37,193 nucleotides of DNA from a virus (taxonomy: Duplodnaviria; Heunggongvirae; Uroviricota; Caudoviricetes). Shown in pieces: positions 4,480 through 37,102 of the stretch. Position 1 is the stretch's first letter. Each line of letters starts with the position of its first letter. Location: the IMG/VR virus record IMGVR_UViG_2534681832_000017, positions 1-37,193 of that record; one strand, 5' to 3'. The translations under genes and the position numbers were made by a program. The notes beneath the pieces are model-generated. The model had not been told where the DNA came from and made no database searches. It saw only the letters and a list, made by a program, of their open reading frames with translations.

Positions 4480-4555
4480 GATGGTGTAGCTCAGCGGTTA
4501 GAGCAGTTGGCTGTTAACCAACTGGTCGGTAGTTCGAATCCACCCACCATCGCCA
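4480..4555 (+). tRNA. tRNA-Asn (anticodon GUU)
   Basis: Cloverleaf: acceptor GATGGTG/CACCATC, D-arm GCTC-AGCGGTTA-GAGC, anticodon loop CTGTTAA, T-loop TTCGAAT, discriminator G, encoded CCA; one A-C mismatch in T-stem. Confidence 0.8.
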
Positions 4556-4560
4556 CTTTA

Positions 4561-4647
4561 GGGGAGTTAGTCCGTAGGGGTAGCGGGGTAGACTGTAAAT
4601 CTACTGTCATTGCGACTCGGGTGGTTCGACTCCATCACTCCCCACCA
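4561..4647 (+). tRNA. tRNA-Tyr-like (anticodon GUA), type II with long variable arm; non-canonical D-arm
   Basis: Acceptor GGGGAGT/ACTCCCC 7 bp, anticodon arm GTAGA-CTGTAAA-TCTAC, variable arm with GTC/GAC hairpin, T-arm GGTGG-TTCGACT-CCATC, encoded CCA; D-stem only forms with a 3-4 nt linker after the acceptor stem. Confidence 0.55.
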
Positions 4648-4651
4648 CATT

Positions 4652-4727
4652 GCCGATTTAGCTCAGTTGGTAGAGCAGTCGCTTTGTAAGCGAATGGTCA
4701 GCGGTTCGATCCCGTTAATCGGCACCA
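4652..4727 (+). tRNA. tRNA-Thr (anticodon UGU)
   Basis: Acceptor GCCGATT/AATCGGC, D-arm GCTC-AGTTGGTA-GAGC, anticodon loop TTTGTAA, T-loop TTCGATC, encoded CCA; resembles E. coli tRNA-Thr(UGU) from memory. Confidence 0.85.
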
Positions 4728-6313: not shown

Positions 6314-6389
6314 GGCCCCTTAGCTCAGTGGTTAGAGCTGGCGACTCATAATCGCACGGTCACCGGTTCAAGTCCGGTAGGGGCCACCA
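6314..6389 (+). tRNA. tRNA-Ile2-like (anticodon CAU; body resembles E. coli ileX rather than tRNA-Met)
   Basis: Acceptor GGCCCCT/AGGGGCC, D-arm GCTC-AGTGGTTA-GAGC, anticodon loop CTCATAA, T-loop TTCAAGT, encoded CCA. Confidence 0.75.
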
Positions 6390-20817: not shown

Positions 20818-21324
20818 TTGAGTATTTTCAATAAACACGCACGCCAGGAACGTCCGTACATCGTCATAGTAGATATTGATGGGACGATATCAGAGGCAAC
20901 GGAAGACAGGCTGCATTTGCTTCCACCACCAGGTAAAGGTGCATTAACAAAGGACTGGAACGAGTTTAATCTCGCCTGTGACACCGATACTCCCATCACT
21001 CCAGTTATTGATATGGTGCGCCAGTTATTTAACGTTTACACGGTCTGGTTTGTAACCGGGCGCTGTGAGATCGCAAGGGATAAAACACGAGCCTGGTTGC
21101 GTAAGCACGTAACAAACGGGGCTGAGCCTTTGCTATCTATGCGTCCTGCCACCGATGACAGAAATGACGGCCCAGCAAAGATTGATCTCCTTAAGAAAAT
21201 TGGTCTAAGTAAAATTGCGTTCGCGCTGGAAGATAAGATTGAAGTGGCGCGTGTTTTCAGGAGACACGGCGTACTTACGTTAATGGTCAGGGAGTATGAA
21301 AATGCGCTTCTCCATCAGCAATAA
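20818..21324 (+). CDS. HAD-superfamily phosphatase-like protein
   Basis: ORF track (TTG start with SD GAGGAGGG); motif I VIVDIDGTI (DxDGT). Confidence 0.55.
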   Translation: MSIFNKHARQERPYIVIVDIDGTISEATEDRLHLLPPPGKGALTKDWNEFNLACDTDTPITPVIDMVRQLFNVYTVWFVTGRCEIARDKTRAWLRKHVTNGAEPLLSMRPATDDRNDGPAKIDLLKKIGLSKIAFALEDKIEVARVFRRHGVLTLMVREYENALLHQQ

Positions 21325-21340
21325 TTGCTCTAATAAATCT
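21324..21340 (+). promoter_or_regulatory. C1-type operator (16/17), overlapping stop of upstream gene
   Basis: ATTGCTCTAATAAATCT. Confidence 0.55.
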
Positions 21341-34062: not shown

Positions 34063-35546
34063 TGGCCAGAAGTTGCGTAACGGATCCACGTTGGCGCGAG
34101 CTGGTGGCGCTATATCGTTATGACTGGATTGCTGCCGCTGATGTTTTGTTCGGCAAAACACCTACCTGGCAGCAGGATCTGATTATTGAGTCTGTGCAGG
34201 AACAGGGTAGCAAGACATCTGTTTCGTCTGGTCACGGTACCGGGAAATCAGACATGACTTCTATCATGATCATGTTGTTCATAATCATGTATCCCGGTGC
34301 CCGCGCCATTATCGTTGCGAACAAAATTCAGCAGGTAATGACCGGTATATTCAAGTACATCAAGATAAACTGGGCTACTGCCACCAGCCGTTTTCCATGG
34401 CTTGCTGATTATTTTGTTCTGACAGAAACCGCTTTCTATGAGGTTACTGGTAAAGGTGTATGGACTGTAGTACCGAAGGGCTTTCGTCTGGGAAGTGAAG
34501 AAGCTCTCGCCGGTGAACACGCAGATCATCTTCTGTATATTATCGATGAAGCCTCCGGTGTCAGTGATAGAGCTTTCGGTATCATCACCGGTGCTCTTAC
34601 CGGACAGGATAACCGCATCTTATTACTGTCACAGCCTACACGCCCAAGCGGCTATTTCTACGATACTCACCATAAACTGGCCAAGCGTCCTGGTAACCCT
34701 GATGGCGTTTATACGGCGATCACGCTTAACAGTGAGGAATCACCGCTGGTAACGCCAGCATTTATCAAAATGAAGCTGGCGGAGTACGGCGGGCGTGATA
34801 ACCCTATGTACATGATTAAGGTACGCGGACTATTCCCTAAATCACAGGATGGCTTCCTTCTTGGACGTGATGAGGTTGAACGTGCGACGCGGCGGAAAGT
34901 CAAGATTGCCAAAGGATGGGGCTGGCTTGCATGTGTGGACGTTGCTGGTGGTACGGGACGGGATAAGTCCGTTATCAATATCATGATGGTGTCCGGCCAG
35001 AGAAATAAACGCCGTGTAATCAACTATCGAATGCTGGAATACACAGACGTTACAGAAACGCAGCTTGCCGCCAAAATTTTCGCAGAATGTAATCCTGAGC
35101 GATTCCCAAATATCACCATAGCTATTGATGGCGATGGCTTGGGGAAATCGACGGCTGATCTGATGTACGAACGCTATGGTATTACCGTCCAGCGTATCCG
35201 CTGGGGTAAAAAGATGCACAGCCGTGAAGATAAAAGCCTTTATTTCGATATGCGCGCTTTCGCGAATATTCAGGCGGCAGAAGCTGTAAAATCAGGTCGT
35301 ATGAGGCTGGATAAGGGGGCTGCGACTATAGAGGAAGCATCAAAGATACCGGTAGGGATAAATTCCGCAGGTCAATGGAAGGTGATGTCAAAGGAAGATA
35401 TGAAGAAAAAACTCAACCTGCACTCACCGGACCATTGGGATACATATTGTTTCGCTATGTTGGCGAACTATGTTCCCCAAGATGAAGTGCTTAGCGTCGA
35501 AGACGAAGCGCAGGTTGATGAAGCTCTGGCATGGCTTAATGAATGA
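34062..35546 (+). CDS. pacB: terminase large subunit
   Basis: ORF track; 494 aa; ATGA-type coupling to pacA; ATPase-like N-terminal region and DxD-containing C-terminal region. Confidence 0.75.
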
Positions 35547-35549
35547 ATA

Positions 35550-35566
35550 TTTGCTCTAATAAATTG
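35550..35566 (+). promoter_or_regulatory. C1-type operator (15/17) upstream of c4 module 3
   Basis: TTTGCTCTAATAAATTG directly after pacB stop. Confidence 0.5.
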
Positions 35567-35748
35567 TGTTTTTTAACTACCGATGTTACATTGAGCCTGA
35601 CCTCTTGCGCCTTGAGGCATTTTCGGTTTATGCTTATCAGGCACCTCATTAAAACGGGTGCCGGGATTGGCCTCCCGCTTAAGTCTAAGGCGATACAGAC
35701 GCCGCTCGCGTCTTTTTTTGTATCGGCGTACACGCACACCTCTACAAT

Positions 35749-35824
35749 GGTGGGCTGTATGGGGCTACCTTCGGGTAGGCTGGTTACCTTGGACGCCAGT
35801 AAGGCCAACTCCGTACAGTCCACC
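35749..35824 (+). ncRNA. c4-type antisense RNA, module 3 (divergent specificity)
   Basis: Same scaffold as c4 module 1 (GGTGGG...TTCG stem-loop...GCCAGT...GTCCACC) with compensated stem CTACC/GGTAG; b-prime CCTTGGA (35787-35793), a-prime AGGCCAA (35802-35808). Confidence 0.5.
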
Positions 35825-35884
35825 GCCAGCAAGATTGGTCTCTTCTGCGGTGGTTACATACCAACGTCTAAGGAGGCTGCCAAT

Positions 35885-36019
35885 ATGGCTACTATCCCTA
35901 CCCCAACTCATCCTGAATTTATCTGGCGCTTTTACTCCTGCCAAAAACGTCACTATCACTTCGTTATTGCACCAACAGAAGATGAGGCTCGCTCTTCAAG
36001 CGTACCCTGCACGTTTTGA
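35885..36019 (+). pseudogene. truncated icd homologue (44 codons)
   Basis: MATIPTPTHPEFIWRFYSCQKRHYHFVIAPTEDEARS then diverges and stops; SD AGGAGG overlapped by the module-3 b2 target. Confidence 0.5.
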
Positions 36020-36453
36020 TGGCGCATTCCTGGGGCATTTCTGATTGAGTCAATGCCATTTCTTCCAACATCTTCTTTATTAACGGCATTGCTAGCCACC
36101 AGCACCCCCCAGCTAGGGATAGCAAAATCAGGAGCGGTTTCGCATGCCTTTACCATATAATCGAAAGTGCTTCGATTGATCTCGTTTGCGTCGGGATTTA
36201 ATAGGCGAGAATATTGATATTTAGCATTTTCGTTGGTTGCGACTTTATATAGTTCTTGCTGCACCATCGCTTCAGAAAGTTTAAGACGTTTCATATCTGA
36301 CAGTAACTTCTTGCGCATGGATTCGTCTTGACTGACAGCAAAGCCGTAAACGTGCCCAAGGTATTTCGTATAATCGGTACAAATCTCCTTTACGCTTGAT
36401 GCTGCATTAACAGCCCCAGCTATAAATAATAACGGTAGTAATAGTTTTCTCAT
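35956..36453 (-). CDS. secreted/periplasmic hypothetical protein (signal peptide)
   Basis: Start at internal ATG with SD AGGTGAGG; MRKLLLPLLFIAGAVNAASS signal peptide with AxA site; 3-prime end overlaps truncated icd. Confidence 0.55.
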   Translation of the reverse strand: MRKLLLPLLFIAGAVNAASSVKEICTDYTKYLGHVYGFAVSQDESMRKKLLSDMKRLKLSEAMVQQELYKVATNENAKYQYSRLLNPDANEINRSTFDYMVKACETAPDFAIPSWGVLVASNAVNKEDVGRNGIDSIRNAPGMRHQNVQGTLEERASSSVGAITK

Positions 36454-36549
36454 TATAACCTCACCTGCCTTATAACTCATTTAGGGTACATATTTTCGCC
36501 TTTAAAAAAAAGAGGTTATTAGATCCAATTGTGTATTTATTAAGCACAC

Positions 36550-36566
36550 AATGCTCTAATAAATTT
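36550..36566 (+). promoter_or_regulatory. C1-type operator (16/17) upstream of c4 module 2
   Basis: AATGCTCTAATAAATTT; partial inverted copy just upstream. Confidence 0.55.
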
Positions 36567-36753
36567 GTATTTTTAAGTCGCGAATGCTATCTTTTCGCAT
36601 CATATTGACCTTTTAATCGTTCAGGCTTATAGTTCCGCCGTCGTAGCAAATTCTGCGACCGGGTTTAGCAGCCTGAATGTTAGTGCGGACAACCGCAGAT
36701 ATCCGATATTGCGGTATTTTTGTGTCCGTAAAACCGCGTTACGCCCAAATTAT

Positions 36754-36830
36754 GGTGGGGCGTGATGGGGAGGCTTCGGCCTGCTGGTTTCACTAACGCC
36801 AGTCTGCTAACCCCGTCACGTCCTGCCACC
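36754..36830 (+). ncRNA. c4: c4-type antisense repressor RNA, module 2 (altered specificity)
   Basis: 77 nt, identical scaffold to module 1 except b-prime CACTAAC (36791-36797) and a-prime CTGCTAA (36804-36810), matched by targets TTAGCAG / GTTAGTG upstream and in the icd leader. Confidence 0.65.
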
Positions 36831-36880
36831 TGTTTAGCAGCGGGTAGCAGGTTGTTAAACCTGTTAGTGAGGCCGTAACT

Positions 36881-37102
36881 ATGGTTAATGCCAATCCTTG
36901 CGCACGCCAAGAATTCATCTGGCGTTTCTATTCCTGTAAAAAACACCACTATCACTTCGTTATCGCAGCAACTGAAGACGAAGCACGCTCTCAATTGCCT
37001 GATGGCCCCTGCATTTTTACTGCCCGTTTTTCAACTAACTCGCGCAATTCACTTAGTTACTGGAGCCTCCCCTTCTCTGCCGACGTTCAGGGGGTTTTAT
37101 GA
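36881..37102 (+). CDS. icd: Icd-like small protein, module 2
   Basis: ORF track; 73 aa; paralogue of 9413-9634; ATGA coupling to downstream ant-like start. Confidence 0.65.
   Translation: MVNANPCARQEFIWRFYSCKKHHYHFVIAATEDEARSQLPDGPCIFTARFSTNSRNSLSYWSLPFSADVQGVL

Follow-up and report, generated by a model that had tools for sequence, protein, structure and literature searches.

An apparently RNA-intact c4-type immunity module cut from its antirepressor gene in a P1-like phage-plasmid

Introduction

What remains of a phage immunity module when its regulatory RNAs are kept but its antirepressor gene is gone? In phages P1 and P7, the c4 RNA is excised from a longer transcript by RNase P. This RNA is reportedly released from the operon transcript and, by pairing with the a2 and b2 sites, is said to block the translation of icd and thereby of ant; the heteroimmunity of P1 and P7 reportedly depends on the a and b sites. 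The annotation of P1 gives the precedent for such a module, in the order Oc4, a1, b1, c4, a2, b2, icd, and ant.

The whole stretch of DNA analysed here (the window; 37,193 nt, IMG/VR record IMGVR_UViG_2534681832_000017) is a segment of a P1-like (Punavirus) phage-plasmid, running from dmt, the tRNAs and ban to pacB in P1 gene order. An original prediction, made from the letters of this window, placed a third c4-type module with a truncated icd and no ant at 35550-36019, and left it as either a decayed immunity module or a c4 RNA retained as a stand-alone regulator. In this study, the parts of this locus, its origin, its distribution, and the readings that could account for it were assessed.

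Results

A third c4-type module follows pacB

Three matches to the Rfam C4 family were found in the window, at 9280-9365 (module 1, after dbn), 35743-35830 (module 3), and 36748-36833 (module 2), and that of module 3 scored highest (75.9 bits). The third module was thus borne out, and every element that had been listed for it was located, base for base. The features of the locus are as follows.

35550-35566, + strand: C1 operator-like site TTTGCTCTAATAAATTG, directly after the pacB stop codon; 15/17 positions agree with the P1 operator consensus ATTGCTCTAATAAATTT
35564-35592, + strand: candidate promoter TTGTGT-17-TACATT, read by eye; overlaps the operator
35605-35634, + strand: candidate promoter TTGCGC-18-TATGCT, read by eye; 7 nt ahead of the IsrK 5' end
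35564-35640, + strand: putative promoter region of module 3
35641-35718, + strand: IsrK-family leader RNA (hairpin 1, hairpin 2 with a1 in its loop, b1 segment, terminator)
35667-35673, + strand: a1 target TTGGCCT, exact complement of a'
35683-35689, + strand: b1 target GTCTAAG (GTCTAAGG at 35683-35690); pairs with b', one G-U
35697-35720, + strand: intrinsic terminator AGACGC CGCTC GCGTCT plus T7 (hairpin 35697-35713), ending the IsrK-like RNA
35749-35824, + strand: c4 antisense RNA, predicted mature form of 76 nt (Rfam match 35743-35830)
35787-35794, + strand: b' recognition sequence CCTTGGAC, in the loop of c4 hairpin 2
35802-35808, + strand: a' recognition sequence AGGCCAA, in the unpaired joint that follows c4 hairpin 2
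35835-35841, + strand: a2 target TTGGTCT; pairs with a', one G-U
35866-35872, + strand: b2 target GTCTAAG (GTCTAAGG, site 35866-35876), overlapping the icd Shine-Dalgarno sequence AAGGAGG
35885-36019, + strand: icd stump of 44 aa, with 36-37 icd codons and a foreign tail of 7-8 codons (SSSVPCTF); intact copies have 73 aa
35986-35995, no strand: predicted recombination junction with 10-nt microhomology GGCTCGCTCT; GGCCCGCTCT in both parental contexts
35956-36480, - strand: 3'-truncated sim-like secreted-protein gene, with an ORF of 174 aa against 224 aa when intact; arrived with module 2

The operator-like site lies right behind pacB, as had been proposed. Ten such sites were found in the window where 0.11 were expected, and the P1 annotation carries an equivalent operator, Oc4/Op51. 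From its sequence, module 3 has a predicted C1 operator ahead of its operon, which is what membership in the P1-type immI group requires. A consensus promoter scan returned no promoter for module 3 at its threshold. The segment 35564-35640 appears to be specific to the P1-like context, because homology with Stx-converting phages (see below) begins only at 35642.

The c4 RNA of module 3 retains the family fold

The original prediction also held that a 76-nt c4-like RNA is built on the scaffold common to the modules. The c4 of module 3, hereafter c4(3), matched Rfam C4 (RF01695) at 75.9 bits against a gathering threshold of 45, over the full model (1-87 of 87), and its mature ends were placed by analogy with the 77-nt c4 annotated in P1. 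The predicted fold is canonical (-40.1 kcal/mol, z = -4.3), and the minimum free energy structure is identical to the centroid. In this structure, a long closing stem surrounds two hairpins; the loop of hairpin 2 holds b', and a' lies unpaired 3' of that hairpin. When the c4 candidates were aligned by covariance model, the compensated helix that had been noted (CTACC/GGTAG) was recovered: hairpin 1 reads CUACC/GGUAG in c4(3) versus AGGC/GCCU in module 2, with three pairs altered on both sides, and the outer stem differs from that of module 2 by three more two-sided and five one-sided changes. All six two-sided pair changes, and the one-sided changes as well, still give standard pairs. Judged by sequence and predicted structure, every feature that defines the C4 family is present in c4(3). 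By analogy with c4 of P1 and P7, c4(3) would be excised from a longer transcript and would act as a translational repressor.

The leader upstream of c4 is of the IsrK type

The a1/b1-like sites predicted upstream of c4 are present as described; the element that carries them, however, is a full IsrK RNA with a terminator rather than a c4-a1b1 element of the P1 type. The match to IsrK (RF01394) at 35641-35718 reached 60.8 bits (gathering 50) and covered model positions 1-77 of 77, with two 5' hairpins and a Rho-independent terminator (35697-35713 plus T7). This terminator (35697-35720) was the only terminator-like site detected in 35450-36900, and it is conserved in homologous units. The c4-a1b1 motif (RF03163) scored 20.5 bits at 35628-35681, below its gathering threshold of 46.7, whereas modules 1 and 2 scored 52 and 55.5 bits with the same motif. 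Because this sub-threshold match spans the same two hairpins, IsrK and c4-a1b1 look related.

Between the 5' end of IsrK and the opening codons (MATIP...) of the gene that follows, the IsrK-c4 unit shares ~79% identity with units of Stx-converting phages that lie ahead of Rha-type antirepressors, and one Stx-phage record annotates both IsrK and C4 RNAs. The IsrK match and this similarity together suggest that module 3 is an RNA unit of the lambdoid type sitting behind a P1 C1 operator. In Gifsy-1, IsrK exists as a terminated 77-nt RNA and as a read-through transcript, from which an RNA of ~80 nt is processed (PMC4825925). Both Hfq binding and trans-activation are known from Gifsy-1 experiments, in which IsrK supplied in trans activates translation of the downstream antirepressor (PMC4825925).

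Loops and targets of module 3 pair with each other and co-vary among relatives

The original prediction had been staked on a complementarity that should survive recomputation, and the pairing persisted at 7/7 positions. As claimed, a' (AGGCCAA) is the exact complement of a1, and b' (CCUUGGAC, 35787-35794) pairs with GTCTAAGG, and so with b1, with one G-U. The repetition of both targets in the icd leader was likewise recovered, a2 at 35835-35841 and b2 at 35866-35872, the latter overlapping AAGGAGG. All four sites pair at 7/7 with zero or one G-U each. When the window was searched for a composite target (an a-target, 5-30 nt, and a b-target, G-U allowed), the + strand matched only at 35667 and 35835, while shuffles of the window gave 0.4 matches per window on both strands together. 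No other pair of c4(3) a and b targets was found in the window or in the whole of a closed 95.8-kb relative, p88_1577-1 (NZ_CP074805.1); the only further composite matches in the latter were a weak, unrelated one and the complementary strand of c4. A candidate target at 21200, TTGGTCTAAG, was taken as a chance match, its two sites overlapping inside an ORF.

The loops of module 3 had also been called new. They do differ from those of modules 1 and 2, cross-pairing with which reached at most 5/7 positions against 7/7 for the module's own sites (between c4(3) and the module-2 leader, 4/7 for a and 3+2/7 for b, that is, no complementarity), but among P1-like plasmids this specificity is not new. 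With RNAduplex on isolated loop segments, the b interaction of c4(3) with its own leader gave -13.9, compared with -5.6 to -7.8 for others. The same calculation failed to separate a'(3), the GGCC palindrome of which meets GAGGCC of P1-type leaders (-8.8), so that register and covariation, and not energy, are what support orthogonality of the a site. The a2 site and both b sites of type 3 each contain a G-U, identical in every intact copy; the type-3 pairing is thus not the strongest possible.

The relative p88_1577-1 carries five C4 genes. Each of its five c4 modules fits its own a and b sites at 7/7, and the sites vary between modules. The site types compared were the following.

Canonical immI of p88_1577-1: a TTAGCAG, b GATTGTG
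p88_1577-1 module beside cre: a TTAGCAG, b GTACATG
Window module 1: a TTGACAG, b GTACATG
Window module 2: a TTAGCAG, b GTTAGTG
Window module 3: a TTGGYCT, b GTCTAAG
P1: a TTGACAG, b GTTAGTG
P7: a TTAGCAG, b GATTGTG
D6: a TTGACAG, b ACTTACG

Given its site pair, the canonical immI of p88_1577-1 is of the P7 type. As a separate observation, up to five c4 modules are stacked in one plasmid, with a and b sites mixed and matched.

Covariation was examined in 84 distinct IsrK-c4-leader units, taken from IMG/VR together with the loci in hand. These units comprised 37 specificity combinations, with 13 a types and 29 b' loops. Across the 37 variants, own pairing was 7/7 for a'-a1 in 36, for a'-a2 in all 37, for b'-b1 in 36, and for b'-b2 in 34; full pairing between mismatched partners occurred at 1.3%, 7.9%, 9.9%, and 22%, in the same order. 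Thus, a'/a1/a2 and b'/b1/b2 co-vary almost perfectly among IsrK-type units. In an alignment with RCS47 (TTGAGAC/GTCAAAG) and Stx phages (TTAGGAC/CAATCAAG), the three-way compensation is visible. The 7/7 fit to own sites in five modules of one plasmid, combined with the covariation over 37 variants, indicates that the pairing predicted for module 3 is real. Moreover, with the shared hairpins and the near-perfect covariation with the c4 loops, IsrK resembles the a1/b1 element of a c4 system.

One recombination replaced the end of icd and all of ant

The icd frame of 44 codons that had been predicted was confirmed at 35885-36019. The NCBIfam profile phage_ICD_like (NF033153) covers this stump only at profile positions 1-36 of 48; where an immI-type region has a complete icd (~73 aa, translationally coupled to ant), module 3 has 44 aa. 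It likewise has no downstream antirepressor under the control of its c4, and the next ant downstream is that of module 2, of another specificity. The absence of ant from module 3 therefore stands: the next gene is a convergent sim-like gene. That a convergent secreted-protein gene overlaps icd also proved correct (35956-36480, - strand), with the amendment that this gene is itself 3'-truncated. Its product has a signal-peptide-like N-terminus, the 5' part of the gene shares 94% identity with the simA/Op51 region of P1, and the ORF has 224 aa in plasmid U2501 versus 174 aa in the window; in p88_1577-1, PGAP labels it 'simA domain protein'. The only Pfam match, PTPlike_phytase, was borderline and was not relied on. 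A sim-like gene normally sits upstream of the canonical immI region.

The BLAST alignment breaks at 35986-35995. To the left of this breakpoint, the sequence continues in vB_EcoM-673R5, RCS47, pLH85-a-A, and many plasmids into a 73-aa icd, ant, and then c1. The junction was examined in a three-way comparison of the window with an intact icd (673R5, locus L001) and an intact sim-like gene (plasmid U2501, locus L003). Since both parental sequences share GGCCCGCTCT at the crossover, the junction is of the microhomology type, and it gives both convergent ORFs short foreign tails. The incoming cassette consists of the 3'-truncated sim-like gene, an operator, a1b1, c4, icd, and ant (that is, module 2); it matches the canonical immI region of plasmid U2501 at 96% identity as far as the end of ant, and in relatives it ends after ant and then rejoins c1. 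Module 2 is thus found away from the canonical immI site, having taken the place of the 3' end of icd and of ant in module 3. Homologous recombination between two icd genes was rejected as the cause, as the right-hand partner is the antisense of the sim-like gene and only 10 nt of homology are present.

The decay that the original prediction had considered was not borne out. Up to the junction, module 3 is 100% identical to intact modules, and the break is a single recombination at a 10-nt microhomology. To judge from these comparisons, one illegitimate recombination at 35986-35995 almost certainly replaced the final 36 codons of icd together with the whole of ant. What lies at 35550-36019 is, by its sequence match to intact copies, the complete RNA part of an old module plus an icd stump.

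Intact type-3 modules are common and the junction is rare

Intact modules were found in vB_EcoM-673R5 (99.1% identity), RCS47 (81.5%), and pLH85-a-A. The 244-nt type-3 RNA unit occurs at ≥99% identity in 102 PLSDB plasmids and in 28 IMG/VR loci. In all of the IMG/VR loci with type-3 loops and enough downstream sequence (28), a 73-aa icd follows, and in all but one of the 28 an ant of 340-372 aa comes after icd. In the exception, pO111_2 (L042), an IS3-family element interrupts ant while IsrK, c4, and icd are kept; read from the sequence, this is a second, independent loss of the type-3 ant with the RNAs retained. The c4, IsrK, a1, b1, a2, and b2 of the stump are identical to those of intact copies. 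The sequenced P1-like phage-plasmids commonly carry a predicted accessory immunity module between pacB and c1, the intact parts of which are a C1 operator, an IsrK-type leader (a1, b1, terminator), c4, the a2/b2 sites at the ribosome-binding site of icd, a 73-aa icd, and ant.

The junction itself was found in the closed plasmid NZ_CP074805.1 (100% identity over 301 nt), which belongs to the 1 of 5426 complete E. coli genomes that has it, and also in three further independent assemblies; no record of it was found in PLSDB, where about 775 records matched, or in the phage collection. Among the junction-bearing relatives, 35200-37100 is ~100% identical while pacB is only about 85% identical, with up to about 25-35 substitutions per 100 nt over pacB 34100-34900; this contrast places the junction block on different backbones, at least three of them. 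Compared with p88_1577-1, the window is 95.6% identical in pacB, and its ends have no exact match there. In junction-bearing copies, modules 3 and 2 were always found as one travelling block. These copies differ by 0-2 in 449 nt, and because they are nearly identical, their conservation says nothing on selection.

Discussion

We consider the probable explanation of this locus to be an RNA-intact module that was cut from its genes by one recombination and now persists in a repressor-only state, with c4(3) possibly acting in trans. Within this explanation, transcription from the C1-controlled promoter region would either stop at the terminator, giving an IsrK-like RNA of ~78 nt with a1/b1, or read through into c4, which would then be cut out as a 76-nt RNA. 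By pairing of its b' and a' with b2 and a2, c4(3) would hide the Shine-Dalgarno sequence and silence the icd stump, and the a1/b1 RNA would compete for the c4 loops and so buffer free c4. Because the plasmid has no other type-3 target, the sole remaining role of c4(3) would be in trans, where it would silence the icd-ant of incoming or co-resident P1-like elements with an intact type-3 module; about 100 sequenced plasmids with such a module are potential targets. With the foreign antirepressor silenced, the resident prophage would not be induced, and the stump would provide 'defence without offence'.

The functional parts of this explanation are held less firmly than its origin. By analogy with P1 and P7, the stump may still make c4(3) and a competing a1/b1 RNA, with c4(3) mattering only in trans, a reading we put forward tentatively. 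More doubtful, although conceivable, is that the stump is a functioning repressor-only immunity determinant, which keeps the shield without the risk of self-induction. If that held, each ant would serve as a weapon against lysogens without its cognate c4, and each c4 would shield against its cognate ant. The two independent losses of a type-3 ant with c4 kept, and the occurrence of the block on at least three backbones, fit the repressor-only reading but do not prove it. Of the two outcomes originally envisaged, a stand-alone regulator is a possible one, and it is the functional reading of the retained c4(3) that we prefer.

The main rival to a trans-acting c4(3) is a neutral, young relic, with the same origin, that hitch-hikes with module 2 and whose RNAs are not usefully made or are without consequence. 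We regard this as rather unlikely. The arrangement is seldom seen and its copies hardly differ, with no sign of long retention, and the scan returned no consensus promoter, all of which favours a relic. The 3' end of the sim-like gene is missing, and the search for terminators detected none on the minus strand between this truncated gene and c4, so that convergent antisense transcription could run through and dampen c4(3). On the other hand, none of the operator, leader, terminator, c4, or four target sites has been altered, each being identical to its counterpart in ~100 intact modules, the block is present on at least three different backbones, and the independent loss of ant through an IS in pO111_2 likewise kept IsrK, c4, and icd.

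Much less probable is a tandem control in cis, in which c4(3) would block translation of the icd stump and, via polarity, gate read-through into c4(2)-icd-ant, placing two locks on ant. No + strand terminator was found between 35720 and 36900, and the two modules always move as a single block, both of which are in its favour. However, module 2 is served by an operator (36550-36566) and a strong promoter (TTGACC-17-TATAGT, 36605-36633) of its own, and its leader shows no complementarity to c4(3). Moreover, some 530 nt of untranslated antisense follow the stop codon of the stump, where Rho would be expected to end read-through regardless of c4(3). Gradual decay, with icd and ant lost through accumulated mutations and deletions, would account for the short icd and the missing ant, but it is very improbable given the 100% identity to intact modules up to a sharp microhomology breakpoint, beyond which a recognisably different cassette begins. 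Finally, a chimera assembled from reads of two repeated icd regions, a risk with short reads in a family carrying up to five similar c4-icd modules, has a negligible chance of being the explanation, since the junction joins icd to the antisense of a sim-like gene rather than icd to icd, and recurs in a closed complete plasmid and three other assemblies.

Among the closest known counterparts of module 3 is the immI region of P1/P7 (Oc4/Op51, a1-b1, c4, a2-b2, icd, ant1/2). Module 3 resembles it in the order of parts, the type of C1 operator, the c4 fold (b' in a hairpin loop, a' in the single strand next to it), the position of b2 over the Shine-Dalgarno sequence of icd, and a homologous icd. 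Unlike the P1/P7 region, which lies at sim-kilA, module 3 lies at pacB-c1, has a leader of the IsrK type rather than a c4-a1b1 motif (20.5 vs 46.7 bits), uses the sites TTGGYCT/GTCTAAGG instead of TTGACAG/GTTAGTG (P1) or TTAGCAG/GATTGTG (P7), and has a truncated icd and no ant. The Gifsy-1 IsrK-orf45-anrP unit and the IsrK plus C4 units of Stx phages are alike in having both Rfam families adjacent and in the same order. They differ from module 3, which is in a P1-like plasmid under a C1 operator; the intact type-3 copies control icd-ant and not a directly fused antirepressor, and the copy in the window controls nothing. For Gifsy-1, the region after IsrK was described as a 45-codon ORF and not as a c4 RNA (PMC4825925); coordinates only, in this case, suggest that orf45 and a c4 overlap.

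In locus and module family, module 3 corresponds to the extra ant of RCS47, pTZ20_1P, and other P1-like plasmids, which is located between pacB and c1. This extra ant was noted earlier as 'two short hypothetical orfs and ant', the RNAs not being mentioned (PMC6906374), and the RCS47 record annotates an ant at this locus. The RCS47 module has another specificity (TTGAGAC/GTCAAAG), whereas in the window copy ant and the icd 3' end have been replaced. The intact type-3 module is a widespread, poorly described member of a known family, and the window copy is a truncated derivative of it.

The stump itself, as a recombination scar in a well-known regulatory family, changes little. Of wider interest is that the 'extra ant' common at pacB-c1 turns out to be an IsrK-type c4 module that has a specificity set of its own, which existing annotations have missed. 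In addition, the data link IsrK RNAs with the a1/b1 element of c4 systems, two entities that the searched literature keeps separate, a 2025 review listing IsrK and c4 apart (PMC12197685). If IsrK indeed served as an a1/b1 decoy that titrates c4, the published IsrK-orf45-anrP mechanism would be re-read as a c4 system. The stump is also a natural experiment in which a c4 RNA has been parted from its antirepressor, and immunity conferred in trans by c4 alone could be tested with it. Such immunity is the logic of P1/P7 heteroimmunity, and probably also that of stacking up to five modules in one plasmid.

As regards current annotation, PGAP calls a 158-aa ORF that extends across both RNAs.

IsrK as a possible a1/b1 element

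In module 3 (35550-36019), the same two hairpins (within 35641-35718) were matched by the IsrK family (RF01394) and, below threshold, by the c4-a1b1 family, which represents the upstream a1/b1 targets of c4 RNA. In Gifsy-1, the first AUG of orf45 lies at nt 107, and the compensated pairs G28-C162 and G31-C159 have been shown experimentally (PMC4825925). When numbered from the 5′ end of IsrK on the window, a comparison of coordinates only, the nt-107 AUG corresponds to the AUG of AAUGGUGGG at the c4 5′ end (35747), and the two compensated pairs fall in a1 (within 35641-35718) and in or next to the recognition sequence a′ of c4 (within 35743-35830). This correspondence suggests that IsrK trans-activation in Gifsy-1 may be a titration of c4 RNA. 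The 158-aa ORF at 35543-36019 (plus strand), which begins at the pacB stop codon, spans both IsrK and c4 in the reading frame of the icd stump and is labelled 'Icd-like protein' by PGAP in the closed relative plasmid p88_1577-1 (NZ_CP074805.1), is an over-extended gene call.

Possible other pairing of the module 3 c4 RNA

The sequence TTGGTCTAAG, in which a2 and b overlap, was found within an ORF at 21200-21209, about 120 nt upstream of a C1 operator-like site (21324-21340). This match probably arose by chance, the expected number of such 10-mers in the window being about 0.07. In all P1-type icd leaders, GAGGCC at the Shine-Dalgarno sequence (for example at 36866-36871; leaders of modules 1 and 2 were compared) is a potential pairing partner of the GGCC palindrome in a′ of module 3 (35801-35808). 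RNAduplex gave -8.8 kcal/mol for this pairing, equal to that of a′ with its own a2; by these computed energies, weak cross-talk with P1-type icd leaders may occur.

Stacked c4 modules and combinations of a and b sites

Five C4 RNA genes were found on p88_1577-1, with icd-ant intact in four of the five.

C4 RNA genes of p88_1577-1 (comparison loci L009 and L010) and of the window
L009 15029-15114, minus strand, C4 RNA gene
L010 1299-1384, plus strand, C4 RNA gene
L010 7733-7818, minus strand, C4 RNA gene
L010 8736-8823, minus strand, C4 RNA gene
L010 34094-34179, minus strand, C4 RNA gene
Window 9280-9365, C4 RNA gene of module 1
Window 36748-36833, C4 RNA gene of module 2

The a and b sites of these modules occur in mix-and-match combinations. 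Module 1 of the window has a P1-type a site and a non-P1 b site (GTACATG), and module 2 a P7-type a site and a P1-type b site; on p88_1577-1, the canonical immI operon (c4-icd-ant) is P7-type, and the cre-adjoining module joins a P7 a site to the b site GTACATG. Since two modules can have one site in common, the question arises whether a single site is sufficient for cross-repression.

IsrK-c4 units elsewhere

In pO111_2 (NC_013370; L042 7415-8760), an IS3-family element interrupts ant of a module with the module 3 specificity (type 3) at about codon 10, leaving IsrK, c4 and a 73-aa icd intact beside it. A single IMG/VR contig carries a tandem pair of complete type-3 c4-icd-ant modules spaced about 1.5 kb apart (L024 975-1002 and 2541-2568, minus strand). 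Among the IMG/VR loci L044-L153 (for example L133, L047 and L053), three kinds of cargo were observed downstream of IsrK-c4 units: icd together with ant; a long Rha/antirepressor ORF that is directly fused; and a conserved 76-aa protein starting MANRKQ(H/Q)RA, with no adjoining long ORF. In addition to its canonical c4, phage D6 (MF356679.1) has an IsrK-like element beside a second icd (75117-75443); a second module of IsrK type is therefore not confined to the P1/P7 group.

pacB and tRNA genes

Comparison of the window with L005, L006 and L007 showed pacB to be strongly mosaic (34100-34900): in its 5′ two-thirds, plasmids with about 100% identity at 35200-37100 differ from one another by about 20-37 nt in every 100. 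P1 has three tRNA genes. Rfam detected four in the window (4480-4724 and 6314-6386), which are Asn, Tyr, Thr and Ile by the annotation of the relative plasmid; the Tyr-like tRNA (4561-4644) scored only 41.9 bits.
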